From NCBI GenBank assembly GCA_030622545.1, contig JAUXGA010000003.1:86748-150747 (forward strand): a stretch of 64,000 nucleotides of DNA, given 5' to 3'. Within the stretch, counting starts at the first letter, position 1. Each line of letters opens with the position of its first letter. The DNA comes from a bacterium. GTDB lineage: Bacteria; Electryoneota; RPQS01; DYHQ01. The position numbers and the translations under genes were made by a program. Under the pieces are notes generated by a model. The model was given only the letters and a program-made list of their open reading frames with translations. It searched no databases and was not told the DNA's origin. Shown here in pieces: positions 11,919-30,342 of this stretch.

Positions 11919-11923
11919 AAGTT

Positions 11924-14563
11924 TTATCCATATTTCTTTAGGAGCGCTTTGAACCGCGGATGTTCGCGGAGAGGATCCCATCTCGGATCGAGGCGAAGCA
12001 AAGGAACTGAGAGTTCGGAGGGAATCGAAAGAAGGTAGTCTATTTGGTCCAAGGCGGCATCGTACTCACCCACCATCACATAGATTTGCGCCAGGTCAGA
12101 TACGCGTTCTGGACCGATTAAAGCGTCTTTCAAGATTGGCATGAGCTCCATTCCCTGCTTCCCTTCGCGGATCGCCTCCTCCTTGCGTCCAAGGCCGGCG
12201 TAGACAATGCCAAGAGAGCTGTGAAGGCGGTAATCGTCGGGCCGCTCTTTCACTTCCGCTTCCAGCAGAATGCGGGCAGAATCGAAGGAGGCGCGGGCAA
12301 GCTCAGGCTCGCCCATGAGCCGATAAACCAAACCCGTCAATTGGACATTTGGGATGAGTCGATACTGGTCGTCCCAAGATTCGGAGGACATGGAAGCGGT
12401 CCGATCCAATGCCGCTTGGTAGTCTCTCTCATACATTTCTTGCAGAAACCATCTGTAGCCGACCTTACCGGGCATCTCTTCTAAGATGGCCCGGGACCGT
12501 ACGGTATCACCTTTCCACCGGCAGCAATTCTCGGCTTTCATGTAGTAGGAACCCACCTGATCTGGAGCTAAGAAAATGGAGCGATCGTAATAGCGCTCGA
12601 CTTCGGCGTACCTCCTCAGGTAGGTGTAGGTAACGGCGATCTCCGAAGTCAGCTTGGCATCGCGTGGGTTCAATTCGAAAGCGCTTTTCTGGCGGTCTAT
12701 GGCTTCTTTAAACCTCCCCTGCCTCCGCCAGATATAGGCTACCAAGAGATTCTTAGCGCGTGTTGGTGGGGGATGATGCTTCTCCGCGGCGGCTAAGGCT
12801 TCCAGTGCTCGATCATAATCTCGATAGCCCCAATAGTAGTAGTACCCAAGCGCCAGATGTGCTTCTGGGAGTTCCGGGCTAAGTACGAGTGCCCGATCTA
12901 CTCCTGTCTTGGCCTTGGTCAAGCACTCTTCGGTACGGTCATACCAGAAGTGATACAGGCCTGAGTAGTTCTTTGAGAGTGCGGCGTAAGCCAAAGCGAA
13001 ATTGGGATCGAGTTTTACAGCTCGCTCGAACATTTGAGTCGCCCGTCGGAAATTCTCCTCGGTACGGTCCGGTCGCGCTACATATTCAGATCCGCGAAGA
13101 TAGGCCTGGTAGGCATCGAGGTTCTCAGTCGGCTTGGCCTGTAGGTCTCGCTGCTCCGGTTCGAGCAGCGTAACGTCGAGCGCCTCGGCAATCTTGGTCG
13201 CGATATCCGCCTGCACCGCGAAGATCTGAGTCAACGACCGCTCGTAGCTATCCGCCCAGAGATGGATATCATCCGATACCTTAATGAGCTGCGGCGTGAT
13301 ACGCACCCGATTTGTATCGCCCGATTTGTCCCACCGAATAGTGCCCTCTAAAATGAATTCGACTCCAAGTTCCTTGGCAATCACCGGAAGAGTCTTGTCT
13401 GTTTTCTTGTACTGTATTGAACTGGTGCGAGAGATGACGCCAAGCTCCTGAATGCATGCAAGTCGTCCAATAATCTCATCCGTAATACCGTCAGCGAAGT
13501 ATTCATCCTCTGGAGCGCCGAGATTGACAAATGGCAACACAGCCAGCATCTTTTTCCCTTCGCTCACCCCAGCCTGTTCCTTCGGCCAGAACGAAAACAA
13601 AACAACGACTGCAACAACAGCTGCAACGACACTCCCAACCATAAACGGCCAGCGAAAAGAGCGCTTCGGTGCCGCGATTGTCGCTCGACTCTCTCTCCTG
13701 ACCGCCAGACCTTTTAAATCAGAGATGACACTGGCAGCATTCTGATATCTCAACGAAGGATCTTTCTCAAGCAACTTGGAGATAATTCGCTGCAGTTCAT
13801 CTGGTACATCGGCTTTATACCGAGCCAATGGTTCCGGTGTATCATTCTGTATGGAATTCAGAATTGCTGCTTCTGTCTCCCCTGCAAAGGGACGACGACC
13901 TGCAATGAGTTCATACAAAATTATGCCAAAAGAAAAAAGATCGCTGCGGTGATCAACTTCCTTTCCCTGTACTTGCTCGGGAGACATGTAGCCTACAGTA
14001 CCAAGAGTCGAACCGGTCCGTGTGAGTTTCTCTGTCCCCTTAACCGTCGCCAATCCAAAATCAAGCAATTTTGGCCGACCATCAGCATCCATGACGATAT
14101 TCGATGGCTTGATGTCGCGATGAATAATCCCTGCTTGGTAAGCCTTGTTCAAACCTTCACAGATCTGCAGAGCAAGATTGATTATTGACTCGAAGGTCAG
14201 CGTATTTTGTTTGATAACATCTTGCAGCGACTGTCCCTCCACATATTGCATGACGATGTAAGGTCGTCCCTGATGTTCGCTAACATCATGGATAGCAATG
14301 ATATTCGGATGATCCAAAACAGCGGCAGCCTGCGCTTCGCGTTTGAAACGAGTGCGGCAGTCTTCATCCTGGCATAAATGCGGCGAGAGAAATTTCAGGG
14401 CAACTTTGCGATTGAGCTTGGTGTCCTCCGCAAGATACACCTCACCCATACCACCAGCGCCAATCTTCTCGATGATTTTGTAATGAGAGATTAACATTCC
14501 TGGAGAGAGGATTACGAACGACTGTGTTTTCCCCATTCCATTGTCATTGACGTTTGAAGGCAT
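11924..14563 (-). CDS. Hanks-type Ser/Thr protein kinase with TM helix, TolB-N-like domain and C-terminal TPR array (paralog 2)
   Basis: The kinase domain is about 85-90% identical to paralog 1 at protein and DNA level. The likely start is MPSNVNDNGMGKTQ (the ORF track extends to 14671). LAVLPFVNLGAPEDEYFADGITDEI motif, then TPR repeats. Confidence 0.85.
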   Translation of the reverse strand: MPSNVNDNGMGKTQSFVILSPGMLISHYKIIEKIGAGGMGEVYLAEDTKLNRKVALKFLSPHLCQDEDCRTRFKREAQAAAVLDHPNIIAIHDVSEHQGRPYIVMQYVEGQSLQDVIKQNTLTFESIINLALQICEGLNKAYQAGIIHRDIKPSNIVMDADGRPKLLDFGLATVKGTEKLTRTGSTLGTVGYMSPEQVQGKEVDHRSDLFSFGIILYELIAGRRPFAGETEAAILNSIQNDTPEPLARYKADVPDELQRIISKLLEKDPSLRYQNAASVISDLKGLAVRRESRATIAAPKRSFRWPFMVGSVVAAVVAVVVLFSFWPKEQAGVSEGKKMLAVLPFVNLGAPEDEYFADGITDEIIGRLACIQELGVISRTSSIQYKKTDKTLPVIAKELGVEFILEGTIRWDKSGDTNRVRITPQLIKVSDDIHLWADSYERSLTQIFAVQADIATKIAEALDVTLLEPEQRDLQAKPTENLDAYQAYLRGSEYVARPDRTEENFRRATQMFERAVKLDPNFALAYAALSKNYSGLYHFWYDRTEECLTKAKTGVDRALVLSPELPEAHLALGYYYYWGYRDYDRALEALAAAEKHHPPPTRAKNLLVAYIWRRQGRFKEAIDRQKSAFELNPRDAKLTSEIAVTYTYLRRYAEVERYYDRSIFLAPDQVGSYYMKAENCCRWKGDTVRSRAILEEMPGKVGYRWFLQEMYERDYQAALDRTASMSSESWDDQYRLIPNVQLTGLVYRLMGEPELARASFDSARILLEAEVKERPDDYRLHSSLGIVYAGLGRKEEAIREGKQGMELMPILKDALIGPERVSDLAQIYVMVGEYDAALDQIDYLLSIPSELSVPLLRLDPRWDPLREHPRFKALLKKYG

Positions 14564-14594
14564 TTGAAACTCTCTTGAAGAAGACGTCTTCCTG

Positions 14595-16241
14595 TTATTT
14601 TTCCCTGTGCAAAACCACCATCGTAATATCATCGCTGCGTGGAACATCTCCGATGAATTTGCGTACTTCATTCATCACCAATTCTGTCAATTCTTTCGGA
14701 GATTGGTTGCGACACTGTTGGACAAATTCCTCTAACCTTTCATCACTGAATTGTTCATCCTGACAGTTGATTGCTTCAGGAATGCCATCCGTAAAAATGA
14801 ATAAATAGTCGCCAGTTCCGAACTCGAGAGATTCCTCTTTCCAAATGTCGTGATCCAGCATTCCGATTGGAACACCAGATGACTCAAGATAATCTACAGA
14901 ACCTGCATCTCGCAGAATCAACGGTGGATTGTGTCCCGCATTAACGTAACGAAAAGTATGCGCACTTGGATCGAGTACGCCGATAAAAAGCGTCGCAAAA
15001 TCTCCCGGACGGCTGAAGGTCAGTAATTGTTTTGACATACGGCGCACGGCATCCAATGGATGAAAATCCTTCGCGTTATGCAAAATGCGGAAACCGGCCA
15101 AGATGTTTGAGGCTAAGAGAGCTGCCCCCATTCCTTTACCACAAACATCCGCTACAAGAAATAGGATTCGCCCATCTTCGAATTTTGCAATATCATAGAG
15201 ATCACCACCGACCTGTTTGCACTGAATCTGAAAGGCATGGAAGCTGTAATTAGCAAGATGAGGCAACTCTTTCGGTAATAATTGCTCCTGAATTTGTGAT
15301 GCGGTTTCCAGTTCAGACTCTAAAACCTGTTTGGCTTGTCGCTCTTTGAGGAGATTGCAATTGGCGATTTTGGCGCCAAGAATATTTCCAAAAGTCGCCA
15401 TTACTCTTAGATGGTCTTCATTATAATGATGCATGGGATTGGTCGTATCCGCATACAGAATCCCCGTGATTTTATCTTCATCAAACAGCGGCACGGCCAT
15501 CGCAGATTTGATGCGTGATTCGATGATTGATTTTTGCGCTGCAAATTTACGATCCCTTTGAATATCAGACAGCAAAAGTGCATTCTTCTGATTGAGAAGT
15601 TCATGGACGACTGTTCGAGAGATGTTAAATGAATCTGAATGTCTTCTATCAGAAGTATAAGAAGCGGCAACAGCGATTTCTTCCTTTTGTTCCTCGGCAG
15701 AGAAGATGGCGATGCGTTCAACCGGAATAAGATCTTTGAATAATTCCAACGCTTGACCATACATTTCTTCCGCAGGGCCAGACAAAATAAGCATCTTTCC
15801 CAGTTCGGAGAAGGCTTTAAACAACTTCGGGTTCTCAAGTATTTTGGATGGAAGAGGTTGAAGCGCTTCCTTTATCGGCAATCGAGTGACATTCACCAGA
15901 CCATCTACAGAATCAGTAATATGAACCGAACTATGCAGAATGTCAGAAAATTCATCACGAGAAATTTTTGCTTCTATTCCGCCGAAAGTGATAATGTCAT
16001 CAAGTTGAATTTGTACAGTGCCATCGATTCTGTGTCCATCGACAGCAGTCCCATTGTGACTTCCGAGATCTGTCAGATTGATTGTTTGTTCATCAATAAC
16101 GTCGAGCTGGGCATGTTTCCGAGACACCGTTTCATCTTCTATTATCAATTCGCACTGCGGGCTCCGTCCAATTGTGTACTTACCGCGTTGCAAAGGCCAC
16201 TTCTTGTGTTTGCCAGCCGATAGAATGAAGAAGTTAATCAT
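14595..16241 (-). CDS. FHA-GAF-PP2C (SpoIIE/RsbU-like) Ser/Thr phosphatase
   Basis: N-terminal FHA domain (GRSPQCELIIEDETVSRKHAQL…NGTAVDGHRI), a central GAF-like region, and PP2C motifs (LVADVCGKGMGAALLAS, FTDGIPEA, DDITMVVL). Confidence 0.85.
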   Translation of the reverse strand: MINFFILSAGKHKKWPLQRGKYTIGRSPQCELIIEDETVSRKHAQLDVIDEQTINLTDLGSHNGTAVDGHRIDGTVQIQLDDIITFGGIEAKISRDEFSDILHSSVHITDSVDGLVNVTRLPIKEALQPLPSKILENPKLFKAFSELGKMLILSGPAEEMYGQALELFKDLIPVERIAIFSAEEQKEEIAVAASYTSDRRHSDSFNISRTVVHELLNQKNALLLSDIQRDRKFAAQKSIIESRIKSAMAVPLFDEDKITGILYADTTNPMHHYNEDHLRVMATFGNILGAKIANCNLLKERQAKQVLESELETASQIQEQLLPKELPHLANYSFHAFQIQCKQVGGDLYDIAKFEDGRILFLVADVCGKGMGAALLASNILAGFRILHNAKDFHPLDAVRRMSKQLLTFSRPGDFATLFIGVLDPSAHTFRYVNAGHNPPLILRDAGSVDYLESSGVPIGMLDHDIWKEESLEFGTGDYLFIFTDGIPEAINCQDEQFSDERLEEFVQQCRNQSPKELTELVMNEVRKFIGDVPRSDDITMVVLHREK

Positions 16242-16395
16242 ATCACCGTTTCTTTTTCTTTAGAACATAAGGACTTTCATAGGTGGATCATTATAATTTA
16301 CAGCAATTGACTCCGAAAAGCAATAGAGAAAGCGTTCAAAGAGTTCTGAAATCAAGGTATAAGCTGAAAGTATAAACAATCCATATCCTGCGAAG

Positions 16396-16429
16396 CAAAT
16401 AAAAAGGGATTAGAAAAAACCTAATCCCT
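16396..16429 (-). terminator. Rho-independent terminator of tRNA-Gly
   Basis: AGGGATTAG / CTAATCCCT stem followed by a U-run on the minus strand. Confidence 0.6.
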
Positions 16430-16446
16430 TGAATATTAACAACTTG

Positions 16447-16518
16447 AGCGGCTGACGGGACTCGAACCCGCAACACCCAGCTTGGGAAGCTGATACGCTA
16501 CCATTGCGTCACAGCCGC
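16447..16518 (-). tRNA. tRNA-Gly (anticodon CCC)
   Basis: RC reads GCGGCTG TG ACGC AATGGTA GCGT A TCAGC TTCCCAA GCTGG GTGTT GCGGG TTCGAGT CCCGT CAGCCGC T. This gives a 7-bp acceptor stem, a CCC anticodon in the loop and a GGGTTCGAGTCCC T-arm. CCA is not encoded. Confidence 0.85.
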
Positions 16519-16596
16519 AGAGTTTTTTGAAGAAGCCTTTAGCACCTGTTAATTAATGGTTTAAAAAGGGGTTTTCGGCCGGCCCGGCTTAATGGA

Positions 16597-17742
16597 TTAA
16601 TTCTTCGTAGACAAAATGGTAGACAATTCTGATGTGGAAGCTTTTCTAAGTGCCTGTTTCAAATCGGACATATCAAGTAATCCTGCATAGTTGTGGATGG
16701 TCGTCTGTATGCTGCTATGTCCCAAAATCTGTTTGACTGCGATTAAGGGAACACCGCTAAGAAGCATGTTCACGGCGAACGTATCGCGAAGGTTGTGCAT
16801 TTTCAGTGATCGTAATCCTGCTGCATCCCTGGCGCGATTGAATTTGATTGAAACATCATGTCGTATTCCCGGAAACAGTTTTCCTTTGCGTGGTTCTGGG
16901 AAAGCATTCAGAAGTTCTTTCTTCAGTACAGGTAAGATGGGAATTCGTCGTCCCCGTTTGGATTTAGTGATTCCCGCCGCTAAGATGATTTGCTCTGCAT
17001 CCAAGTCTACAATTCCGACGTTGGAAGAAATCACTTTCCTTGTGGTGTCGAACCATTCAAGTGATCGGGCTTCATTGCGCCGCATTCCTGTCAGTGATAA
17101 GACGACTAAGAAGGTTCGAATGGATACGCCGTTCTGGGTAATAGATTCGGCAGCTTCCAGCAATCGTCTGACTTCATCTGGTTTGTAGTAATCCCTGTTT
17201 ACCTGCGCGGGCACCCTGACTTCGTGAATGTGTGGGGGGTTCCATTCTTCCAGATCATTTTCCCTGACGCACCAATTCAGAAAGGCACGAAGATTACGAA
17301 GATGAATGTTCAGCGTATGTTTTGATAGTGGTCTAAGTCGTTTCTTCAAGCGGTTTCTGGCACCGCGTTTTATCAGTGCCGCCTGGAATTGGGATACGTG
17401 CTTCTTGGTTATCGCTTTCAACTGTAGATTTCCAACTACTTCCATAAAGATTTTCAGGGTGTGCTGGTGCAATTCACCGGTACGTTCACCCCATTGATGC
17501 TGCCGTTCTTCAAGGTATTCTTCCACCAGGCTGTGGATAGTTGGGCTGTCCTGCCCTTTGGCATTGGCAAAGGGATCGCGTCCGCGGTCAAGTTCGTGCT
17601 GAAGGTACTGGGCAATCTTAGTCGCTTCTTTCTTCTGGCTGGTTTGGGTGTTATGGGATTTTCGTCGGCCGTCTGGATATTTAATTTTCGCATACCATAC
17701 AGTCTTTCCATCAGCCAACGTCCTACGGTATAGTGATGTCAT
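16597..17742 (-). CDS. Tyrosine-type site-specific recombinase / phage integrase (integrase 1)
   Basis: C-terminal HxxR…Y catalytic motifs (HNLRDTFAVNML, HNYAGL). Start chosen at the internal MTSLYRR, preceded by the RBS AGGAGGG; the ORF track extends to 17790. Confidence 0.9.
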   Translation of the reverse strand: MTSLYRRTLADGKTVWYAKIKYPDGRRKSHNTQTSQKKEATKIAQYLQHELDRGRDPFANAKGQDSPTIHSLVEEYLEERQHQWGERTGELHQHTLKIFMEVVGNLQLKAITKKHVSQFQAALIKRGARNRLKKRLRPLSKHTLNIHLRNLRAFLNWCVRENDLEEWNPPHIHEVRVPAQVNRDYYKPDEVRRLLEAAESITQNGVSIRTFLVVLSLTGMRRNEARSLEWFDTTRKVISSNVGIVDLDAEQIILAAGITKSKRGRRIPILPVLKKELLNAFPEPRKGKLFPGIRHDVSIKFNRARDAAGLRSLKMHNLRDTFAVNMLLSGVPLIAVKQILGHSSIQTTIHNYAGLLDMSDLKQALRKASTSELSTILSTKN

Positions 17743-17760
17743 GGTTATCCCTCCTAAGAT

Positions 17761-17796
17761 AGAAAAACCCCGAAGTGACTGAATTGTCACCTCGGG
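17761..17796 (-). terminator. Strong rho-independent terminator between the nuclease gene and integrase 1
   Basis: 12-bp stem CCCCGAGGUGAC / GUCACUUCGGGG followed by UUUUU on the minus strand. Confidence 0.7.
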
Positions 17797-17828
17797 GCTC
17801 TTGGGTTAATGGATATGTTTCTACGTTC

Positions 17829-18635
17829 TCACGCCAGCGGATCAGCTATGCAGCTTACCTTGAATGGACAATCCACGCACTGCCATCCTGGGTTCGGGTA
17901 GAAGTGCTCCTCTCTCATGGCCTCACTTATCATCATCAGCATCCTCACAAATCGCTGTGCATCCTGATAAGTGCGATGGGTCTGGTACTTCAGGTGCAGG
18001 GGTGTTTTGTTCTTTAAAAGTACATCGAATCGAAGGTGGATGACCTCATTCTTCTCAATTGAATAGGCTTCCCGCGCCCAAAGGCTATAGGCTGTCAGCT
18101 GTAAGTTTCGTTGCACAGAATCATCAGTGTAGCGCGCACTGGCTGTCTTGTAATCCACGAACACAATATTCCCGTCATCAGTCTGCTCGATCAGGTCAAT
18201 TCTTCCGACCAAAGGCACGTCCAAAGTTTCGCCGGTTTCTCCATCCACGACATTCAGGGTGAAATCCTCTTCTACGCCCAGAACATCGCCGGGTTTGACG
18301 TTCTTCATGAAGCAATCTAACATCGCATGTCCCTGTTGTTGTATTTCTACCGGATCCTTGCCCGTCTTGAACTTCATCTCGACCTCAGCACAATCCTGAT
18401 ACAATCTCGTATCGAAGACGTCCTGAAGGTCTGTGATGGATGTTCTCTTTCTCTCTAAGTGATCGGTGTAATATTTCTCGATGGCTGCGTGAATAGCAGA
18501 TCCAAGCGTAAGGGCTGCTGGTTTGAATTGCCATTCCTCTCTGTCGATGTACTGGAAGCGATATCTCAGGGGGCAGATCAGGTACGTGTTGACTTGGCTG
18601 AAGCTGATATGGTCTGGGATGTTTGCGTAATTCAT
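17829..18635 (-). CDS. PD-(D/E)XK nuclease, Cas4/RecB-like exonuclease with a 4Fe-4S cysteine cluster
   Basis: N-terminal Cys (YLICPLRY), C-terminal C-x2-C-x5-C (CVDCPFKVSC), and a DYK-type nuclease core (FVDYKTA). Start at MNYANIPD with the RBS AAGGAGG; the ORF track extends to 18701. Confidence 0.75.
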   Translation of the reverse strand: MNYANIPDHISFSQVNTYLICPLRYRFQYIDREEWQFKPAALTLGSAIHAAIEKYYTDHLERKRTSITDLQDVFDTRLYQDCAEVEMKFKTGKDPVEIQQQGHAMLDCFMKNVKPGDVLGVEEDFTLNVVDGETGETLDVPLVGRIDLIEQTDDGNIVFVDYKTASARYTDDSVQRNLQLTAYSLWAREAYSIEKNEVIHLRFDVLLKNKTPLHLKYQTHRTYQDAQRFVRMLMMISEAMREEHFYPNPGWQCVDCPFKVSCIADPLA

Positions 18636-18717
18636 GGTGTTCCTCCTTTGGGTAAAAGGGAAGCGGCGCGGCCGATATGTTATTCGACTACGCCGCCTCA
18701 TTGCTCTGTTTAATTGA

Positions 18718-19479
18718 TTAGTTCCCGTTCAGGAAATGCCTCGATACCTGTCTGTTCCACGTCTCCGCGCGAAATGACTCCTGCCGTGTGAAGACATCAG
18801 TGAACGCATTATACAGGGCCCACTGATTATCTCCGTCCAGTGCCATGAACACATCGGCAGTGTACGTCTTGGGCAGCTTCAATTCACGGAAGGTGTTCTG
18901 GATGTCGGCTCTGTCGATGGGGATGTCCACTATCCTCTTCAGGCATGTGACTAATCCCAGCATCTTGTTAGACAGTTCTCTGATAGTGATGGCTGCTTGG
19001 GATAGCTCCTCAGTGAAGCCCTCGTTTCCGTAGTGCTTGAAACGGAAGCCCCCTAAGCGGAAGTCAACGACCATACCATTCGTGCAGATAAGTCTTTGCG
19101 CATTGAAGGCCAGTCCGAATGTCGTGCTGCCGTCATAGCTGTTAAATACGTCCACGGCTATCTGGACGATGTCGTCCTTCTGGGGTTCGAAGTTGATCTC
19201 CGGTAGAAGCCATCTTTGACGGTATCTCTTTCCATCGAACAGGTGTTTGGCTGACTGGTACTCATGGCCGGTTTTCTCCAGCACTTCTGTGGCGATCTCA
19301 CAAACGGTGTGGTTCTCGACCAGCTGATAGTCACCAGACACGATACCGACCTCTCTGTTCTCACAGTAGGGGTCAAGGATCACGGCATAACGCGAAGATT
19401 GCGCTCCGTTCTCAGTAAATAGGGGAACCTTTTTCACGGCGGCAAAGGGATCCAGGGGTTCAGTTGTTTTCTGTGACAT
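18718..19479 (-). CDS. Hypothetical phage/ICE protein, DUF932-like
   Basis: 253 aa. The central region VFNSYDGSTTFGLAFNAQRLICTNGMVV resembles the DUF932 signature. Recalled from memory, not searched. Confidence 0.45.
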   Translation of the reverse strand: MSQKTTEPLDPFAAVKKVPLFTENGAQSSRYAVILDPYCENREVGIVSGDYQLVENHTVCEIATEVLEKTGHEYQSAKHLFDGKRYRQRWLLPEINFEPQKDDIVQIAVDVFNSYDGSTTFGLAFNAQRLICTNGMVVDFRLGGFRFKHYGNEGFTEELSQAAITIRELSNKMLGLVTCLKRIVDIPIDRADIQNTFRELKLPKTYTADVFMALDGDNQWALYNAFTDVFTRQESFRAETWNRQVSRHFLNGN

Positions 19480-19568
19480 GATAGTTTCCTTTCTGGGTTA
19501 ATGGCATAAAAAAAGCCTCGACTTTCTTATGAAGCCGGGGCCTTACGATACGATAATTCTTGTTACTC

Positions 19569-20228
19569 TCATGCAGGTACATCCTCCAGGATTGTCAGTA
19601 GCTCGTCTGCCTCGTGTGTGGTCAGTGCGTACAGGGATTTCGAAAAGCGATTGCGGATCTTCTTGATTAGTTGGTTCTGGGGGATACCTTTTTGCTTGGC
19701 CACCTGGAAGATCTTGCTCATTTGGGCGTTGGTGACTCGGTGGGATTGCTCTTCGGGTTCTGCTTCCTCCTCTGGCTGTGGATTAGCTGATTCCTTGCCT
19801 CCGTTTCCGTTCGGCTTGATTTCCAGCCCGTACAGGTGCAGTCCCACACCGAACTGCGTGGCGCACTTCTTCAGGCAATCTGATGCTGCTCCTTTCAGGT
19901 CGTCTCCGATGCTCACAGGTTGGTTGTCCTGCTTGCCTCGTGTGATCGAAGATGAACCGAATTGCTGGTGTGTGATTCCGTGGGAAGATAATTCTCCAAG
20001 GACGATGACCTCGTCCTCAAGGATCAGGTGCTCGACGATGCGGAATGACCAGTATCCTTCCATCGCTTGGTTCAGGCGTTCGATGACGTAATGGGATCCG
20101 ACATAGTCCAGCATTTTGCCAAATCTGCCCTTACGTTGTTGGATTCTCTCCTCTTCGAATGGCTTGGTTAGCGCCTCAAGATTAAGGCGGCCATTACCGG
20201 TGCCGGTGGTTGTCTCGGTGGTTTCCAT
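19569..20228 (-). CDS. Rad52/Rad22-family single-strand annealing protein (phage Sak-like recombinase)
   Basis: The motif DDLKGAASDCLKKCATQFGVGLHLYG parallels Rad52 [23 protein letters not shown]. It is adjacent to the Cas4-like exonuclease, a two-gene recombination module. It has an acidic C-terminal tail. Confidence 0.6.
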   Translation of the reverse strand: METTETTTGTGNGRLNLEALTKPFEEERIQQRKGRFGKMLDYVGSHYVIERLNQAMEGYWSFRIVEHLILEDEVIVLGELSSHGITHQQFGSSSITRGKQDNQPVSIGDDLKGAASDCLKKCATQFGVGLHLYGLEIKPNGNGGKESANPQPEEEAEPEEQSHRVTNAQMSKIFQVAKQKGIPQNQLIKKIRNRFSKSLYALTTHEADELLTILEDVPA

Positions 20229-20271
20229 GATGAATTCCTTTCTTGTTGGTTAATGGTTTGAATTGTGAATG

Positions 20272-20306
20272 TGAAAAGCCCCCGCTGGAAACAGACCAGG
20301 GGGGCT
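20272..20306 (-). terminator. Hairpin terminator immediately upstream of the Rad52-like gene
   Basis: GCCCCCCUGG…CCAGCGGGGGC stem followed by a U-run on the minus strand. Confidence 0.55.
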
Positions 20307-20847
20307 CGGAACGTTTTGGATTAAGCCGGCAAACCCAAGAATAGGGTTCTGGAAATATTTCCCGAATTTTGCTCTCTATAAAGGCATCTCTATTTGTCTC
20401 GATAGGACTAGGTGGTAGTGAAAAATATGTGTGGATTTCCGGTGGAAGAAGCGGATTGGCTGCTTCTGGACATCAGATTCAGTTGGATACGCGCAAAATC
20501 ACGCCGAATTTACCACGTACACGTGCTTTAACAGTAGAAACTGATCTGACGTAAGTGGCTGTTTTTGGAAGGGGTAAGACTATGTCAGGTACTGGGCAAA
20601 TGGAAGGCAGGATGCCCCCGTAACATCTGCTGCTTTCGGATGAATGAAGCTGGGGGGACATCCCCTTGCGGGGTGGTGGTGATAGCAGGAAGGGATCTGG
20701 TATCAGTGATATGGCCTCTGCGGACTGTGATGGGGCTGGCACCTGTTACAGGCAGCTGTCGGCGGATACCACGCTGGGGACAGGTGACAGGGCCTTCCGG
20801 CCGGGGACTGCTCTTTCCTGTGGTGTGTTTGTCTGCTTCAGGGTCCG

Positions 20848-20896
20848 GCACCTTTGTCAAAGTAAAGATTTCTCTATAATATATTTTGGAAGATTC
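20848..20896. promoter_or_regulatory. Perfect 11-bp inverted repeat with a promoter-like TTGTCA…TATAAT core
   Basis: CAAAGTAAAGA(T)TTCTCTATAATATATTTTGGAAGA(T)TCTTTACTTTG. This is the most conspicuous element inside the 760-bp non-coding stretch at 20229-20989. Confidence 0.4.
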
Positions 20897-20989
20897 TTTA
20901 CTTTGGGGCTGACACAAGACCAAGACAAGCACCACAGGGGGTCTCAAGGGGCTTCCGGCGGCGCCAGCCGCGTGAATCCCAGTACTTGG

Positions 20990-23900
20990 CTACTTCATTT
21001 GCCCCATCCGGATGAAGTTCCTTGTGTCTGTTCCCAAGTCCATTTGCCTCATCCACCACTGTGTATATAGCACATCAAGCACTGGTGTCAGGCGCTGCTT
21101 GTCCTTGATACCTGCTGCCTGCCGAATGTCCGCCTTGGGCACCTTATAGACTTCGGGATTTGCAAAGGCTTCGATCAATACCCCGACCAATCTCCTGCTG
21201 CTATCAGGTGCGCTAAGCACCGATGGCCACTCTTCCGGTTCTATCCCTTTCAGTGCTTCCTTCAGCCGCCGTTTGAATTCCTTGTCCCTATTGCCCATGT
21301 ACACCGTCACGGGGCCGTTGATTCCATATTCCCTTAATTGCGTCCGGTATATCTGCTGTACCACGTCCACCAGCCAGGACTGCTGCCGGTAATGTTCTGC
21401 ATGGCCATTCAGGAACCTGCGCACTTTATCAGGGCCTGATTCAGCGTCAGCTTTATCGACAACTTCCCTTCCGTACAGGACTGCTGCCTGGGCCAGGTAC
21501 TGATCTTCATGATAGCGCAAATTCCCCACGAAGAACATCACCGTAGCTTTGCGGAAGTCATTGGATCCGGGGGTTTGACCATAGTGTTTTATCTGGCACC
21601 TTGCCTTTACTTCATCGGATAGGTGGGCTTCGATCTTATTTTCCCATTCTTTGAAAGTCAGGACGAAAGCTTCTTCATCAGGGTGAACGTAGGTCATCAG
21701 GCGGTCAATTTCTTGGGCGAATAGCTTCAGTTTTGCATCATCATTGTCGCCAAGGGACGTCTGGGACATGCTTCTGTTTTCGTCTAACCGAATTATCAGC
21801 TTATCGATATTCCTTGGCTGGTAGGATCCCAGGAAGCGAACATCAGGCCGGTTATCCAGAAGCACGTCGTAGTGGACATTGGCCAGTGCGGTTCCATCCA
21901 GGATGGTGGTCTTCACACCCACAGGCAAGTCCCGTGTCCTGTAACCGTAACTGATATGCAAGCCTTTGGCGTCCCTTCTGTAAGTTCCGCCTTCTTTGAT
22001 TATCCCCAGACTTAGCCGTAGAATATCACTATCATCATCCACGACGCTATGCACGGCACTAACATAGCCATCACTGACCTTAAAGCCTGGATCAATGGGT
22101 GGAATGAAGCCTTGCCCTGGTTCATCTTCAGGTACACGCAACTGTTCTAATTGTTTCCGCAGCGTATCAAACATACGCAGATGAAGCAATTCATGCGGCC
22201 GTTTCCTTTGTTCTTTGCGCAGGCGGTTCATGAACTGGACGAAGCTATTGTAGCTAACGGTATTCACCTTGATGAACTGGGGCACTTCATCAATGATGAT
22301 TTCGCGTCGGGGATGTCGATGTCCACTGGAATCTTGCCAGTACATGAAATCTTCCATATCCTGCATGGCCAAACGCGCATGGGTAATGGCCAAAATAGGA
22401 CTGTTGCGCTGGCGTTCCTTGTTATATTTCACGCGGCAGTTATAATTCTGGCACATAGCGCACTGCGAAGGTTTATATTTTTCGAATCCCCTGCCTTCAT
22501 AGTGTTCACAGTTTTTGCATTCCGGAAAAGTTCCATCGCCATTGGGACTTCGGTCACAGTTAACGTAGCAGAAAGCCGTGCAGATTTTCTTAGCATGGCC
22601 CAGCATGGGATAAACGGTTCTTCCGCTAACATTACGTTCCCCCGGCACGAAACGGTCAGCTTCATCGGCCAAATCTTTTGCATCATCCTGTAAAGGCAAA
22701 ACGACGATAGCGCCATAATACCGGTCCAGGCGGCGAAGTCCCTCAAGATAGGTGCGGTAGATAGAGGTCTTGAAATTCCCTGGCGCTGCTGGTACAATGG
22801 CAATATCATCAAGGTTGCGACACAGAGCCTTGACAACGGCTGTCCAGTCAGCTTGGTAGTTGGATTCAACGGACTTGTAGCGGTTTTCGAGCCTGTCGCG
22901 TATTACTCGATACACTTCACCTAATATGCGGACTGAATTCGCATCGAGGTTTGCGTAGAATCTTTCTTCTGAACGCCTGCATTCCTTCAATTCCTTGTAG
23001 AGCCACTTCGCCCTGAGCAATCCCCATTGAATAGTGGGTGGCAATCCGTTTGGGGGATTCCATCCTGCTGCTTCAATCAGTTGTTCAAAATTGTAATCCC
23101 TATCGTCACAGGAAAAGCAATGGGATTGGCCAGTCCTTAGATTAATCGACCAACTGGGATTCCGGTCATCGTGAAAAGGACAGCTGGCATTAAGTTCATC
23201 GCGACTGCGTTGTGCATTTTCGACTTTATCCCGAAGATATTCTTCAATATCGACACCATATTCAGATATGATGGAGCCAGCGATTGCCTGGTTGCCATCT
23301 TCACTGCTGATGGCTAAGCGTGCCAGTTGCCGTCTGGTACGGGATTCTTGTGGTTCTGTGCACTGCAATGATTCATGGACGTCGGCGACAAATTGCTTTA
23401 ATTCATCGCATAGCCCTGGACTTCGCTGATCTTCAGGCTGCCGGTCTTCTTTCGCCCATTCTGCAAATATGGATAGATCGTTCTGCCACAGTTCTTCAAA
23501 CGACAATGGAATCTTGTACAAACCGGTCTTGAAATGTCGGACATGTGGTGGCACAATGGCCGATGCGCCCATTCTATAAATCTTCATATCAGGAACAACA
23601 CCAGCCATGCCAGCAATGCGCTGCGCACTTTCCCCAATATCAGTCATTGTGTACGGGCTACGGGGATGTGCAAAAACATGATGCGGCATGTAAATATGGA
23701 ATCCACTGCTGCCAGTGAAATAGATCTGAATCTGGGAGTCCTGTAGATGAAAGCGCTTGATCAGAGAATCAACCAACTGCCGCGCATCACCCACAGTATC
23801 CTGTGAATCAATATCAAAAACCATATCAATATCGCTTGGGCCATCTTCCTGTTGCCAGTAATCCTGAATCGACCAAACCGCGCCGATTCTTTGATCGGGA

Positions 23901-24046
23901 TCGCACGGGATTTCCTTAACGGCTTCGTGGGCTTCGGGCAAGGGAAGAAATTGTGGTCCCTGCCGTCTAATGGCCCAGACCTTCTTGTAATATGTGATAG
24001 GATTTTCCATTAAAGGGTGCCGCCGCGCATATTTATTACCAGACAA
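20990..24046 (-). CDS. Replication protein: PrimPol (AEP) primase-polymerase + DnaG-type CHC2 zinc finger + Cys-rich cluster + helicase-like C-terminal region
   Basis: AEP motifs DIDMVFDID and FTGSSGFHIY. CHC2 finger CPFHDDRNPSWSI…CFSC. Cys-rich segment CTAFCYVNCDR…CKNCEHY…CAMCQNYNC. Walker-B-like IIIDEV. 1018 aa. Confidence 0.75.
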   Translation of the reverse strand: MSGNKYARRHPLMENPITYYKKVWAIRRQGPQFLPLPEAHEAVKEIPCDPDQRIGAVWSIQDYWQQEDGPSDIDMVFDIDSQDTVGDARQLVDSLIKRFHLQDSQIQIYFTGSSGFHIYMPHHVFAHPRSPYTMTDIGESAQRIAGMAGVVPDMKIYRMGASAIVPPHVRHFKTGLYKIPLSFEELWQNDLSIFAEWAKEDRQPEDQRSPGLCDELKQFVADVHESLQCTEPQESRTRRQLARLAISSEDGNQAIAGSIISEYGVDIEEYLRDKVENAQRSRDELNASCPFHDDRNPSWSINLRTGQSHCFSCDDRDYNFEQLIEAAGWNPPNGLPPTIQWGLLRAKWLYKELKECRRSEERFYANLDANSVRILGEVYRVIRDRLENRYKSVESNYQADWTAVVKALCRNLDDIAIVPAAPGNFKTSIYRTYLEGLRRLDRYYGAIVVLPLQDDAKDLADEADRFVPGERNVSGRTVYPMLGHAKKICTAFCYVNCDRSPNGDGTFPECKNCEHYEGRGFEKYKPSQCAMCQNYNCRVKYNKERQRNSPILAITHARLAMQDMEDFMYWQDSSGHRHPRREIIIDEVPQFIKVNTVSYNSFVQFMNRLRKEQRKRPHELLHLRMFDTLRKQLEQLRVPEDEPGQGFIPPIDPGFKVSDGYVSAVHSVVDDDSDILRLSLGIIKEGGTYRRDAKGLHISYGYRTRDLPVGVKTTILDGTALANVHYDVLLDNRPDVRFLGSYQPRNIDKLIIRLDENRSMSQTSLGDNDDAKLKLFAQEIDRLMTYVHPDEEAFVLTFKEWENKIEAHLSDEVKARCQIKHYGQTPGSNDFRKATVMFFVGNLRYHEDQYLAQAAVLYGREVVDKADAESGPDKVRRFLNGHAEHYRQQSWLVDVVQQIYRTQLREYGINGPVTVYMGNRDKEFKRRLKEALKGIEPEEWPSVLSAPDSSRRLVGVLIEAFANPEVYKVPKADIRQAAGIKDKQRLTPVLDVLYTQWWMRQMDLGTDTRNFIRMGQMK

Positions 24047-24210
24047 ATCACCTTAATTTAGACAAATATTGTGGTGGATGCAATAGGGATAGATTAGCTT
24101 CCGCTTCATGCCAATCAGTTACACGGAGTAGATACAATGCAAAGGCGGTACTTTATTCTACCGCCTTTGCTGTATGTGATGTGGAGGTAAGTTCGGGGGG
24201 GGGGTGAAGG

Positions 24211-24756
24211 CTACTTCACCAGCAGGAGCTTGCGGACTTTGGTGAAGCTTCCCGCATCCATCCTACACAAATAAATGCCTGAAGGAAGGCCCCGTGCATT
24301 CCATGTGGCAGCATACGAACCTGCCGCCAGTTTTCCATCTACCAGGATTGCTACTTCCCTTCCCACCACATCATAAATCTTCAGGGAAACAAAACCGGTT
24401 TCCGCAACGTCATATGAAATCGTGGTTATCGGATTGAAAGGATTGGGATAATTCTGGTAGAGAGCATACTGTACTGGAACCGATGGCCTTCCCGGAGTAG
24501 CCTGAGCGGTCAGTTCATATTCATGAACAGTGCCGTTGATGTCGTGTGATATGAGGCGATATGTGTAAGTTACACCGTTGATAACATCGCTATCAACATA
24601 CTGGTAATTCGAGCCAGTTACTTCATTGGTGCCTTGGACTGTTCCGACGGTAATCCAATCACTGTTTGCCTGTCGCTGTATTTCAAAGTAGTCGTTATCT
24701 TTTTCACTGGCGGTAGTCCAAGTCAGAGTCACCTGTCCATCACCTGCGATTAGCAT
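24211..24756 (-). pseudogene. Orphan fragment: Fn3-like domain plus a T9SS C-terminal sorting domain with no signal peptide
   Basis: It starts directly with AGDGQVTLTWTTASEKDNDYF, the same module that begins the conserved C-terminus of genes 30826-32685 and 44290-46332. It has no N-terminal export signal and sits next to the IS5-family element. Confidence 0.5.
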
Positions 24757-24871: not shown

Positions 24872-25741
24872 GAGCATATCTCAAAAACATTTGCTTGTTA
24901 ACTTAGGGTGTCGTATCTTGACGGCCTCTCTCTTTTTGGAGGTTATCAAGATGGATTTAACTGAAGAACAGTGGGCGTTGATTGCCTCGTTAGTGGCTGA
25001 TCGGCCTCGAATTAAGCGACGCAAGGTGGATAGGCGGGGACGGCCCCGCGTTCCGGCGCGCCCGATCTTGAACGGGATCTTATGGATCCTAAGGACAGGG
25101 GCTCCTTGGCATGACTTACCCGACCGCTACCCGTCTTACCAAACCTGTCACCGCCGCTTTCAACAGTGGTCGCGCGATGGCACTTTTGAAAGCGTGTTGC
25201 GCGCCTTGGCCCAGGATCTATGGGAACGGGGTGAGTTAGACTTGTCCGAATCCTTCATCGACGGTACGTTCGTACCGGCGAAAAAAGGGGGCGGCAGGTG
25301 GGTCCCACCCGTCGGGGTAAAGGCACGAAGATCATGGCCGTGGCAGACGGCGCTGGTTTTCCTCTCGCCGTGTGCACAGCGAGTGCTTCCCCGAATGAAG
25401 TGACGCTGGTCGATCAGACCTTGCAGGCCCGCTTCATCGAGGAGTTACCCTGTCGGATGATCGGGGACAAGGCTTATGACAGCGATCCGCTGGATGCTCA
25501 TCTCCTGCACGACTACGGCATCGAAATGATCTCCCCCAATCGCGCCTCACGCACGCGAAAGACCCAGGATGGTCGCCCCCTGCGACGCTATCGAAGGCGT
25601 TGGAAGGTTGAACGGTTGTTTGCCTGGTTGGGGCAGTTCCGCCGCATTGCCACGCGCTACGACCACTTCGTCGAAAACTACATCGGCTTCCTGCACCTCG
25701 GATGTATGATCATTCTCCTACGATGTTTTTAAGATACGCTC
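24872..25741 (+). mobile_element. IS5-family (IS427/IS1031-like) insertion sequence
   Basis: Terminal inverted repeats GAGCATATCTCAAAAACAT / ATGTTTTTAAGATACGCTC, flanked by TA within a CTAG context. Two overlapping transposase ORFs. Confidence 0.75.
24891..25732 (+). CDS. IS5-family transposase, orfA+orfB joined by a programmed -1 frameshift
   Basis: OrfA is 24891-25403 and orfB is 25298-25732. The A7G slippery run GGCGAAAAAAGGGGG lies at about 25279-25293 in the overlap. OrfB carries a DDE region. Confidence 0.75.
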
Positions 25742-25747
25742 TAGCCA

Positions 25748-26543
25748 CAGCGGTGGAAAGTGGTGGCCCTGGATCTTGTGGTGGACCGCTCACCGGATAC
25801 CCAAGCGAGAGATTCAGAACCTCAGCACCTTGGGTTCCCGACCAGGCAATGCCGTCGGCGATCGCTTGTGTGGTTCCGCTCCCCTCATCGTCGAGAACGC
25901 GAATCGGCATGAAGGTACATAGAGGAGCAACGCCGGCAACACCCACAGAGTTGTTCGTTGCCGCAAGGATGGTTCCGGCCACATGCGCGCCGTGCGAGTC
26001 ATCGACAGTGGTTGAAGGGTCCGTATCGCCGCCAACGAAATCGTAAGGATGAACAGTCTGGACGCCCGTCCAGTCCTCATGGTCAAAGTAAAAACCCATG
26101 TCGGCTACCGCTACGACGACACTTGCGCTGCCGAGTGTGATGTCCCAGGCCTGGGGCATGTTAATTCTCGGGTAGTGCCACTGGTACCCGTAATAGGTGT
26201 CATTGGGAGTATAAGCGGCGTGTGCGATATAGTTGAAGTTGGCCCATAAAACACCATCCTGTCCACGGAGAAAACTGATCGCTTCTTCAACATCAGTACC
26301 AGAGAGGTCAATGCGGTAGAAGTCGAGCAGCGCGCTGTGGTAGGAGAGTTCGCCGTCCACTTGGGCGGCAATCGCAGTGATATCCGCCGTTTTAATGGTC
26401 GGCGCGAATTTAACGAGCACCTGACCGGGAACAAATTCATAGAAAGGTTCCCCTGTCTTCAGTAAGGGCAAGGGTTTGGTCGCGAACACTGGCGTGAGAC
26501 CAAGTAGCACGACCATAAGGGTGGCAAGAGTCCTGTGCATCAC
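25748..26543 (-). pseudogene. S8 subtilisin-like peptidase, N-terminal part only, truncated at the IS5 right end
   Basis: Signal peptide, propeptide-like region, catalytic Asp (VVAVADMG), His (HGAHVAGT) and Asn region (NLSLG). The reading frame then runs into the IS inverted repeat. The Ser (GTSMxxP) region is absent. Confidence 0.65.
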
Positions 26544-27047
26544 TGCACCTCAATAATTTTAAACGAAAATACCGAGTTGCTATCGAGCAAACTGGATGCC
26601 ACTAGAACTCATTATTGAATATCAGGAATAATGTGCATGGGGTCAGTTGTGATACGGATTTGCAAGTTGAATTAATGTGGATCTTAGATAGGATCTGAGT
26701 GACCGGTTTCGGCGCCAATACTCTGGCGATGGATTCCCGGACTGCGGGTCAGAATCGCTTTGGAACGCTTGTGACAGGATCCACAGGGAAAATGTTTCCA
26801 TGGGTCAGATGCATCTTTCGTGCTTCCCTGCATGGCAGGTAGTCTCCTGCTGAAGCGACGCATTGCAATCTCATGGATGGTGGATCAGGATGCTGAAAAT
26901 GCATTTTAGCAAATGTTTCTAAAACTGTGCAATTCAACAGATGCTGTTTAACCGTAGCCCCAATGCGCTGGCATACTAAAGATGAAGTTTGGGCTACCCG
27001 AAACGATCACGCTGCCGTCCCTGCGATACACCTTCGCATCCCATCTA

Positions 27048-28180
27048 GTGCCGTTTCCGATAAGGTAATCCCGTTGAGTCGGAACGGGCAGGTTGTGCGT
27101 AGAAGGAGTAGGGTTCCAAATCTAAAAGGAGGTTGGATGTCTACTCCGGTCAAGCTTCGACCGATTAGCGATACCGAAGGTCAGGCATTAGTGCGGACCG
27201 TTCGGCGCTCGCCAGACCCGGTTGCTCAACGCCGTGCCACCTGTGTGTTGGCGGCGGCCACAGGGATGAAGGTGCCGCAGATTGCGCGTAACCAGTTGAT
27301 TGATGAGACCTTAGTGCGGCGCATTCTGCATGCGTTTAATGCCCAAGGTCTGGCTTCACTGGGCAACCGCTATGGCAAAGGTCGCCCGCGCAAGTTTGAT
27401 GACCACACGCGCCGGAAGATTGTCGATACCGTCTGTACTCCACCGTATCAACTGAAGCTCCCTTTCAGCGTCTGGTCGCTGCCCAAGTTGCGGGACTATC
27501 TGATCCAGAAGCGGATGGTGTCCTCCATCGCCATCGAGACGCTCCGGCGGCTGCTACGCGAGGAAGGAGTCAGTTTACAGCGCACCAAGACCTGGAAGCA
27601 GTCCACCGATCCTGACTACGCCGCTAAAAAAAAGCGGTCGAGCAGTGTTACAAAGCCGCGGAAGCGGGCCGCTGGACGGTAATCTGCTTCGATGAGTTCG
27701 GGCCGTTGGAAATTCGTCCGCATCCCGGTGTGGACTGGGCCCGTCATGGTCAGGTGCGACGATTACCGGCGACCTACAAACGTCCACACGGCACGCGGTA
27801 TTTATTGGCTGCGTATGATGTGCAGACCCAGGCGTTGTGGGGTTCTATCTACCAACGGTAGACGTGGAACGAGGTGCTCGACTTCCTGAAAGCGGTGCGT
27901 CGGCGTTATCCTGACGATAGGTGGTTACACGTGGTTCTCGACAATCGAAGCAGTCACAAAAAGCAAGAGGTGCGACAGTGGTGCGCGGCCAACCGCGTGC
28001 GGCTGGTCTTCCAGCCGACTTACAGTTCATGGCTGAACCGGATTGAATGCCAGTTCACCGCGCTCAAAAAGTTCGCGCTGAGCGGTCGCTATTTCAAAGA
28101 TCACGACGAACAGAATGCGGCGATCCGTGCCTACTTAAACTACCACCGAAAATCGAGATAACCTTTCGAGAAACGGCACT
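27048..28180 (+). mobile_element. IS630-family insertion sequence with a TA target duplication
   Basis: 29-bp terminal inverted repeats (GTGCCGTTTCCGATAAGGTAATCCCG / CGAGATAACCTTTCGAGAAACGGCAC) flanked by TA on both sides. Confidence 0.75.
27136..28161 (+). pseudogene. IS630-family transposase (HTH + DDE_3) with a frameshift at an A-run and an in-frame TAG
   Basis: Starts MSTPVKL with the RBS AAAGGAGG. Frame change at the A8 run GCTAAAAAAAAGCGG (27614-27628). Stop TAG at about 27858 (…IYQR*TWNEV…). The DDE region VVLDN…SH…QPTYSSWLN is in the last segment. Confidence 0.65.
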
Positions 28181-28466
28181 AGGCGTTAAAATCAGCACGA
28201 TCCGTAAATGGACGCACTACAAGTTTATCCCTCATATTAAAATGCGGCGCACCGTACGGTTTGACCGCGATGAAATAGATGCGTGGTTAAACAGGCAGGT
28301 AAGTAGAGGGAGAACTCAAATTCGACGGCAGTCACTATCTGCCGATGGCTAGAGATCAGTTAATCGAAAGGCTCCAATTAAAGGGAGCCTTTCTTCTTAC
28401 TGGGGAGGGGAACGAAATTGGGCGGAATATTTATCTTAGTTCTTTGGCATATTCTTAATGCCGAGC

Positions 28467-29039: not shown

Positions 29040-29066
29040 TATGGATACCTTTATGCTTGAATTCAG

Positions 29067-30191: not shown

Positions 30192-30252
30192 CAGTCTTTC
30201 CTTGTTTGCGTGGTTTAGAGTGTGACAGAATTTCGTATTGATTGCCCAAATT

Positions 30253-30333: not shown

Positions 30334-30342
30334 CTAATTTGT

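Follow-up and report, generated by a model that had tools for sequence, protein, structure and literature searches.

A compact integrase-bearing element with a primase-helicase gene and a Rad52-DUF932-Cas4-like trio beside a bacterial tRNA-Gly gene

We analyzed a 64,000-nucleotide (nt) stretch of the bacterial contig JAUXGA010000003.1, hereafter the window, whose positions supply all coordinates given below. Our subject is a compact block of genes on its minus strand, which we call the int1 element after its tyrosine integrase gene, int1. From 16597 to 24010, this block holds five intact open reading frames (ORFs), all in the same orientation, tightly packed and with one internal terminator. 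They encode, from left to right, the integrase, a Cas4-like exonuclease, a DUF932 protein, a Rad52-family annealing protein and a large replicase; a tRNA-Gly(CCC) gene (16446-16518, minus strand, matched by Rfam) stands to their left. A preliminary description of this DNA had listed these genes, all on the minus strand, together with a strong terminator by the integrase, a non-coding region of about 760 bp and iron-sulfur (Fe-S)-type cysteines in the exonuclease, and had noted that capsid, terminase and tail genes are missing. This inventory stands: the genes are backed by profile searches (Pfam, PHROG, NCBIfam and PADLOC), and the other features are described below. Loci of relatives are numbered L0xx, and database proteins P000x.

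The integrase gene (16597-17742, minus strand) encodes 381 amino acids (aa) from an ATG, and its product matches Pfam Phage_integrase (2.8e-18) and phrog_1 (2.6e-57), as well as SAM-like N-terminal domains in Pfam. The ATG at 17742 lies behind a GGAGG ribosome-binding site; a GTG-extended ORF reaches 17790, and because a hairpin occupies 17763-17797, we place the start at the ATG. This hairpin, on the minus strand between exonuclease and integrase, was read by eye and missed by a consensus terminator scan. It resembles an intrinsic terminator, with a 12-bp stem (CCCCGAGGTGAC / GTCACTTCGGGG) and a 6-nt loop followed by TTTTT. The exonuclease gene (17829-18635, minus strand; 268 aa from M23, in an ORF that extends to 18701) encodes a Cas4/RecB-like PD-(D/E)XK enzyme (PDDEXK_1, 4.4e-34), which also matches the phrog_69 exonuclease family (7.5e-29) and PADLOC Cas4 (7e-16). 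Its score of 56.6 against TIGR00372 cas4 (2.7e-15) is below the cut-off of 65, and we therefore call it Cas4-like rather than a CRISPR Cas4 equivalog; its translation contains the four-cysteine Fe-S-type pattern C...CxxCxxxxxC. The DUF932 gene follows (18718-19479, minus strand; 253 aa), with a Pfam DUF932 match of 6.6e-18 and a match to TIGR03299 (1.6e-10) that is below the cut-off. The annealing protein (19569-20228, minus strand; 219 aa) is a member of the Rad52 family of single-strand annealing proteins (SSAPs) by an above-cut-off match to Pfam Rad52_Rad22 (PF04098, 5.4e-12), and it also matches Erf-like/SSAP families in PHROG.

A non-coding gap of 761 nt (20229-20989) separates these genes from the replicase gene, downstream of which it lies. 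The latter (20990-24010, minus strand) encodes 1006 aa from its ATG; with a TTG start, the ORF reaches 24046 and encodes 1018 aa, the length given in the preliminary description. Two junction zones frame the element: 78 nt on the left, from the integrase stop to the tRNA-Gly 5' end (16519-16596), and 89 nt on the right (24047-24135), from the extended replicase ORF to the terminator of the neighboring gene (24139-24170). Both the right end of the element and the promoter of the replicase gene must fall within the right zone.

No virion, packaging or conjugation gene was found between 8.7 and 31 kb of the window by ORF translations and Pfam, and capsid, terminase, portal and tail genes in particular were not seen in that interval. 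Searches of Pfam and PHROG for terS, cpm, ppi and capsid homologs gave no match in 16.5-24.1 kb or its flanks, and the same databases revealed no helix-turn-helix (HTH) repressor or AlpA domain among the five ORFs of the element. The sole HTH_17 gene nearby (28160-28352) belongs to an island at the transfer-messenger RNA (tmRNA) gene, and not to the int1 element. An Rfam scan of the window matched only tRNA and tmRNA.

The replicase is the most unusual protein of the set. Its architecture is an archaeo-eukaryotic primase (AEP) primase-polymerase domain (residues ~53-195, nt 23426-23854), a CHC2 zinc ribbon of the DnaG type (residues 255-317, nt 23060-23248) and an XPD/DinG-like superfamily 2 (SF2) helicase (residues ~355-1000, nt 21011-22948) with an Fe-S-type insert of four cysteines (residues 477-525, nt 22436-22582). 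Conservation was counted in an alignment of 31 full-length family members. For the AEP domain, Pfam gives a weak match with the single sequence (E 0.009), which is backed by a PHROG primase match (6e-10) and by tblastn, where phage and plasmid primases match the replicase N-terminus. A profile of the family matched the PrimPol AEP structure 6zp9 (1.4e-4), and DnaG zinc-binding domains as well, among the structures of the Protein Data Bank (PDB). AEP motif I is well conserved (D66 in 28 of 31 sequences, D68 in 30), and in the region of motif II G103 is present in 28 and position 105 is H (19), K (9) or Q (2); the assignment to the AEP superfamily is based on these two motifs and on the 6zp9 match. 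The zinc ribbon is above cut-off in Pfam (Zn_ribbon_DnaG PF01807, 8.7e-9) and matches 1d0q (5.9e-4). Its presumed ligands are C277 (30/31), H280 (27/31), C298 (29/31) and C301 (19/31).

As for the helicase, the residues expected of an SF2 enzyme are invariant in all 31 sequences: G411 and K414 in Walker A (consensus GGGKS/T), D574 and E575 in Walker B, D705 and T707 in motif III, and Q885, R889 and R893 in motif VI. Between Walker A and B, C477 and C525 are invariant and C520 occurs in 30 sequences, while the fourth cysteine falls in the column of either C498 or C517 (29/31, summed over both columns). An insert of about 125 aa separates motifs II and III, at the position of the Arch domain. 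At the sequence level, the region has no match in the PDB or to Pfam DEAD_2 / Helicase_C_2, and in homologs of the replicase it yields only weak ResIII/SNF2 matches in Pfam. Its fold is more telling. An AlphaFold model built from the 31-sequence alignment reached a pLDDT of 70 (70-94 across the helicase), compared with 31 for an alignment of two sequences. Foldseek placed DinG (6fws, 1.5e-12) and XPD (9p55, 5.6e-11) first in the PDB, with target-normalized TM scores of 0.48-0.51; further XPD/DinG matches included 5h8w and 2vsf, the E values ranging from 1.5e-12 to 1e-9. Phage DinG/Rad3-like helicases were the top matches in a viral structure library. The SF2 motifs, the four-cysteine insert and these best fold matches led us to reject a D5, superfamily 3 or PriCT identity. 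Thus, the PrimPol/zinc-finger/helicase fusion proposed in the preliminary description is retained, but its helicase is not of the D5/PriCT kind.

The likeness to XPD and DinG lies in the structural matches, the four conserved cysteines between Walker A and B and the insert at the Arch position; the window protein differs in its low sequence identity (~10-13%) and its fusion to a primase, and its Fe-S binding is a prediction. XPD and DinG helicases translocate 5'->3'. If the replicase shares this family polarity, it would obey a primase-helicase logic similar to that of T7 gp4, built from non-homologous parts and relying on a predicted Fe-S cluster and predicted priming. The architecture is analogous to that of T7 gp4 or DnaG-DnaB in that a CHC2 zinc ribbon and a primase are coupled to a helicase of a 5'->3' family. 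However, the primase is an AEP and not a TOPRIM enzyme, and the helicase belongs to SF2, a family of monomers, and not to the hexameric rings of superfamily 4.

A replicative role is not the sole conceivable one for such a protein. The E. coli IEE (Z1568-like) is itself an AEP-SF2 fusion on an integrative element, with polymerase and microhomology end-joining activities and no unwinding shown (PMC9943667). By analogy, the large protein of the window, which adjoins an exonuclease/annealase module, could be an IEE-like repair or end-joining enzyme, and the block a recombination/repair or defense island that does not replicate itself. We consider this very unlikely: the protein retains the DnaG-type CHC2 zinc ribbon typical of primases, which IEE lacks; the best fold match of its helicase is XPD/DinG, while that of IEE is DEAH/RadD-like; a repeat-bearing non-coding gap follows the gene in relatives; and sister elements have D5-type (DUF5906) or AAA+ proteins in the place of the replicase. 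IEE, for its part, functions in insertion sequence (IS) excision and end joining.

The replicase belongs to a large family. An exhaustive HMMER search returned 576 relatives, many of them 960-1030 aa long, with alignments (20-28% identity) that start at the N-terminus or the zinc ribbon and reach the C-terminus; shorter ones (about 600-650 aa) match residues ~507-930 alone. Full-length members (~960-1030 aa) retain the AEP DxD, the zinc-ribbon cysteines, Walker A and B, motifs III and VI and the four cysteines. Close database proteins are only two, P0001, which is identical to the replicase, and P0002, its nearest relative (77% identity). As annotated, P0002 has neither the first 163 residues nor, hence, the AEP domain, which suggests a decayed copy or a miscalled start. 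The same two proteins were the only ones found when the 31-sequence alignment was used to query a word-indexed database. Pattern scans for relatives returned nothing in species-representative genomes or in IMG/VR, and distant AEP domains only in metagenomes; searches for contigs encoding exactly the replicase, the DUF932 protein, P0001 or P0002 gave no match.

Several of the more distant homologs reside in small islands, two of which have recognizable ends. In Filibacter tadaridae (L007), a 17.2-kb island flanked by 142-nt copies of the tmRNA 3' end carries the homolog together with a tyrosine integrase, a RES-domain protein, an MmeI-type restriction-modification enzyme, a ResIII helicase and a T5orf172 protein. 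At L011, the homolog shares an 11.2-kb island with an integrase and a SIR2 protein, and here the flanking repeat is a 92-nt copy of the tRNA-Val 3' end. A third homolog, in Paenibacillus (L009), adjoins a serine recombinase and has a Cap15 gene nearby. Repeats that mark attachment (att) sites at the ends are established for L007 and L011. Precomputed Pfam calls contain no virion gene at any of the three loci. L007 also contains a non-coding duplication of about 390 nt (8041-8428 and 9536-9929 of that locus, 72-88% identity), whose copies lie upstream of a 240-aa gene and of the replicase gene and may be repeated promoter or regulatory regions.

The 761-nt gap of the int1 element contains low-complexity ORFs only, none of them credible. 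It is AT-rich at its center (30% GC at 20850-20909), within an imperfect palindrome of about 125 nt whose arms are at 20858-20881 and 20882-20905, with outer arms at 20817-20825 and 20930-20938, and its predicted RNA fold is somewhat better than that of shuffled sequences (z = -2.6). A non-coding gap of 380-590 nt likewise follows the replicase gene in L006, L007, L009 and L011; the gap of L006 carries three tandem copies of an 11-nt unit, and that of L011 three copies of a 36-nt one. By analogy with these, the gap of the window is a candidate replication origin. At the end of the gap, about 50 nt upstream of the Rad52 start codon, we observed a GC-rich hairpin with a T-run (20274-20305), which could terminate a transcript of the gap or the replicase mRNA.

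The three genes between gap and integrase form a second conserved unit. The exonuclease and the Rad52 protein had been described as a two-gene recombination module of the RecET/Red type, and they are plausible as a two-component recombinase; the conserved unit, however, is of three genes, with DUF932 among them. The same features set it apart from the lambda Red, RecET and Sak modules, with which it shares the side-by-side arrangement of an exonuclease and a Rad52-fold annealase: its exonuclease is Cas4/RecB-like with Fe-S-type cysteines, and the DUF932 gene sits between the two. The DUF932 protein has 69 detectable homologs, and in the loci examined its gene is directly upstream of a PDDEXK_1 nuclease gene. 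In the literature searched, only ten papers mention DUF932, and in none of them does it appear in the title or abstract. By tblastn, the Rad52 protein matches recombination proteins of Polaribacter, Thermus and Moorella phages; the Polaribacter phage with the best match has no recognizable DUF932 or nuclease neighbor.

The closest relatives of the trio indicate that it moves as a block. On three metagenomic contigs (L015-L017), DUF932 and exonuclease genes are 82-84% identical to the window at the nucleotide level and are preceded, at the contig start, by the Rad52 gene or its 3' end. In L016 and L017, homology (82%) runs from window position 19686 down to exactly 17763, that is, through the terminator, and then ends; the next gene encodes another tyrosine integrase, only 27% identical to int1, and is followed by a tRNA-Ser gene whose 3' end faces the element. 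Judged from these alignments, the terminator at 17763-17797 marks a boundary of module exchange. In L015, homology extends no further than the stop codon of the exonuclease gene, after which a type III restriction-modification pair is encoded. More distant loci, L018-L020, have a 50%-identical DUF932 gene between Rad52 and exonuclease genes, and also hold a DUF5906 (D5-type) replicase, an HTH_17 protein, a cargo protein secreted by the type IX secretion system (T9SS) and an integrase. L018 is a 12.4-kb unit bounded by a 60-nt repeat (5039-5098 and 17454-17513 of that locus) that includes the tRNA-Gln 3' end. Near both ends of this sister element (5227-5246 and 17422-17441) there is a 20-nt tandem TTGGCACAT motif, a candidate arm-type binding site for the integrase. 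Finally, in L024, DUF932 and nuclease genes lie beside an integrase and a weak AAA+ match, abutting housekeeping genes. By comparison of these loci, the gene set is a recurring, modular and demonstrably integrative architecture, in which the integrase and the replicase are exchangeable.

With moderate confidence, we interpret the interval of ~16.52-24.13 kb as a discrete cryptic integrative element of this recurring modular class, one that would replicate and recombine by itself and borrow the machinery for its transfer. The tyrosine integrase would carry out site-specific insertion and excision. The replicase, a single polypeptide, would prime and unwind as T7 gp4 does, acting probably on an origin in the 761-nt gap. 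The Rad52 annealase, the DUF932 protein and the Cas4-like 5' exonuclease would resect and anneal DNA ends, an activity that could serve recombination-dependent replication, circularization or repair of the excised element. Since there are no virion, packaging or conjugation genes, passage from cell to cell, if the element is still mobile, would need outside machinery such as a helper phage, vesicles or transformation. Primases of the AEP superfamily that are exclusive to mobile genetic elements (MGEs) have been described in a 'cryptic integrated MGE' (PMC5862659).

A number of observations weigh against this interpretation. The element has no excisionase or regulator gene. An alignment of the two junctions had been proposed as a way to find attL and attR; no direct repeat of at least 10 nt exists between 16380-16640 and 23990-24260, and local alignment and k-mer comparison of both junction zones gave chance 8-9-mers only. 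The int1 stop lies 78 nt upstream of the tRNA-Gly 5' end, as the preliminary description had pointed out, and this is the non-canonical side of a tRNA gene. No empty site was found in a related genome, a search with the flanking phosphatase gene having returned only relatives of 21-22% identity. A search for the element as an independent circular contig, also proposed earlier, came back empty, and there are neither nucleotide relatives in plasmid or phage collections nor related sequence in IMG/VR. This replicase is linked to the trio in this window only; for close relatives of the trio, the contigs are short and break off before reaching the gene upstream of it. Iterons in the gap of the window are weak, none of them being in tandem, and if P0002 is a decayed copy, this too would count on the negative side.

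The preliminary description had likened the block to phage satellites. That it is a compact, integrase-bearing element devoid of virion genes agrees with our results; its assignment to satellites similar to phage-inducible chromosomal islands (PICIs) does not, as packaging genes, regulators, att sites and evidence of a helper are all missing. A PICI-like or minimalist satellite would be induced by a helper phage, replicate with its own primase-helicase and be packaged in helper capsids. Small size, an integrase, self-replication and the absence of structural genes would suit such a life style, islands of the replicase family in Firmicutes bear anti-phage cargo as many satellites do, and the succession of replicase and ori-like non-coding region resembles the pri-rep/ori arrangement of Staphylococcus aureus pathogenicity islands (SaPIs). 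We nevertheless regard a satellite as somewhat unlikely. We recognized no terS, capsid-size, pac/cos or helper-interference gene, and no repressor or AlpA-type activator; there are no att sites and no known helper; and int1 and the close DUF932 family (at least 45% identity) are absent from the viral contigs of IMG/VR. In short, the int1 element has in common with PICIs and SaPIs that it is a small integrase island, encodes a primase-helicase of its own and has a putative origin next to this gene, but it differs from them by having no regulatory, packaging or capsid-redirection genes. Its primase-helicase is not homologous to SaPI Pri-Rep, and its origin is proposed from the gap, the palindrome and the repeats of relatives. 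To our knowledge, PICIs typically do not possess a recombination module such as the one found here.

The order of the genes raises another possibility, namely that a decayed temperate prophage has lost its late genes and the block is what remains of its early region. Replication gene, annealase, exonuclease, integrase and att site, in this order and with the integrase 3' end outward, would mirror the pL operon of phage lambda. All proteins of the element match PHROG families, distant DUF932 relatives are found on viral contigs of 28-68 kb and in Arthrobacter phages, the neighborhood is IS-ridden, and no att repeats were found. On the other hand, L018, L007 and L011 show this compact gene set between intact att repeats, and late genes are lacking there as well. 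All five ORFs of the window element are intact, and the replicase start abuts the terminator of the neighboring gene with no phage debris between them. A prophage remnant is thus quite unlikely, and we return to a discrete integrative element.

For such an element, its relation to the tRNA-Gly gene is puzzling. A canonical tRNA island lies 3' of the tRNA gene and is bounded by a repeat of the 3' end; int1 and its companions lie on the 5' side and have no such repeat. The repeat exists, but on the other side: a 26-nt core at 16444-16469 (+), made of the last 24 nt of tRNA-Gly plus 2 nt, has an exact direct copy at 8707-8732 (+) (blastn E 2.6e-9; two exact copies in the window against none in 100 shuffles). 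No third copy is present at the replicase end or elsewhere in the window, and the core is absent from IMG/VR. The two cores bound a 7.7-kb island (8733-16443), located on the side of the tRNA opposite to int1, which contains two paralogous Ser/Thr kinase-TPR genes (8964-11981 and 11924-14671) and an FHA-GAF-PP2C phosphatase gene (14595-16241), and no integrase. In its position and composition, the repeat has the classical, att-like signature of an island at a tRNA 3' end, facing away from the int1 element.

It could be, then, that int1 works with tRNA-Gly and that the int1 element and the kinase/phosphatase island form one composite system, either as one element with a tRNA-bearing attP or as an integrase-less, cis-mobilizable island served in trans by int1. 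The bounded island has no integrase of its own, and int1, 78 nt from the tRNA, is the nearest one. In L015, moreover, a 56-nt stretch about 420 nt past the exonuclease (2766-2821 of that locus) is 80% identical to window positions 16276-16330, which sit inside the kinase island beside the tRNA terminator; this may reflect an arm or promoter sequence common to both, or hint at how the element is really built. We judge a composite unlikely, as a third core copy is missing, including at the replicase end, the island genes look like ordinary host signaling genes, the 56-nt match could reflect a shared promoter, and no arrangement that we worked through reproduces the observed gene order. The arrangements considered were a tRNA-bearing attP, tandem accretion, inversion and assembly across attP, and models of misassembly at tRNA-Gly failed in the same way. 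A single composite island anchored at the tmRNA gene and reaching int1 was also rejected, as no tmRNA repeat was found; comparisons of the tmRNA 3' end with the window and of the tRNA 5' half with the right junction gave chance 8-9-mers only.

Two further described systems resemble the discrete integrative element that we favor. The first is the cryptic integrated MGEs that encode AEP primases of the PrimPol-PV1 supergroup (Kazlauskas et al. 2018, PMC5862659): these encode, next to an integrase, an AEP fused to a Zn-binding domain and a helicase, and they lack phage and conjugation genes. The article also mentions fusions of AEPs to domains with no more than a remote similarity to SF2 helicases, and contains no mention that we could find of XPD, DinG or a helicase Fe-S insert. 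The AEP of the window, in whose family motif II carries H, K or Q, could not be placed in the AEP families named there. The second is the tycheposons (Hackl et al., bioRxiv 10.1101/2020.12.28.424599), which combine a tyrosine recombinase with a primase/helicase at tRNA or tmRNA genes and accrete beside tRNA genes. Hallmark genes, tRNA/tmRNA sites and accretion fit the neighborhood between tRNA-Gly and tmRNA, a likeness of architecture alone: tycheposons are defined by a specific deep-branching clade of recombinases; the host of the window is non-cyanobacterial and has a T9SS, and the int1 element is on the 5' side of its tRNA.

Within the mobilome, small integrative elements that have a replicase but no genes for transfer are still poorly explored, and they often carry defense systems. 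Islands with an integrase and a primase/helicase at tRNA genes, such as PICIs and tycheposons, are already known, and AEP primases fused to Zn-binding domains and diverse helicases, including in cryptic integrated MGEs, are already described (PMC5862659). Three points appear to be new: the explicit XPD/DinG-like Fe-S character of the helicase family, the association of the replicase family with att-bounded islands bearing defense cargo, and the conserved Rad52-DUF932-Cas4-like trio as an exchangeable module. The replicase family is currently annotated 'hypothetical protein', and an AEP joined to an XPD/DinG-like helicase would be a new build of primase-helicase. DUF932 acquires a possible role by association, its gene being the one constantly found between those of annealase and exonuclease, and the apparent exchange at the terminator offers a natural case of module swapping in which one recombination block stands beside unrelated integrases.

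A bolder proposal is that all of the following hold together: the replicase founds a widespread, unannotated class of single-chain primase-helicases, DUF932 is an obligatory part of a three-component recombinase, and the elements form a new lineage. We put this forward tentatively, as possible but doubtful. If true, the replicase class would be the hallmark of a family of small integrative islands, many with anti-phage cargo, that occur in Firmicutes and in bacteria with a T9SS, and the lineage would consist of self-replicating, non-viral, non-conjugative elements whose integrases and replicases are exchanged at defined borders between modules.

On the right, the gene next to the element (24211-24756) encodes a T9SS sorting tail and is the C-terminal piece of a split subtilase-like gene, the N-terminal part of which is at 25710-26543; its identity as a protease was read from the translation only. 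The split is due to an IS5-family insertion with two overlapping transposase ORFs (24891-25403 and 25298-25732), an overlap that suggests a frameshift. An IS630-like element (~26927-28160), identified by eye, is inserted in the HTH_17 gene, which is excisionase-like and which it truncates; its transposase is broken into several ORFs, either frameshifted or decayed. This HTH_17 gene is part of a degenerate second island (28047-30695) at the tmRNA 3' end. Integrase 2 (29067-30272; 23% identical to int1) abuts the 3' end of the tmRNA gene (30341-30695, tag ANSTYALAA), and a 190-aa protein (28467-29039) has no match in Pfam, PHROGs, NCBIfam or PADLOC. The search for a distal tmRNA repeat of this island returned nothing. 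With at least three islands and two IS elements, the interval between tRNA-Gly and tmRNA is an accretion zone for mobile DNA, and this hot spot shows how such islands grow.

Beyond the tmRNA gene, a 619-aa T9SS-secreted protein is encoded at 30826-32685, with six tandem repeat units of 78/81 nt (31830-32313) that we read by eye as a parallel beta-helix. Over its last ~180 aa, this protein resembles the C-terminus encoded by the IS-split gene (24211-24756).

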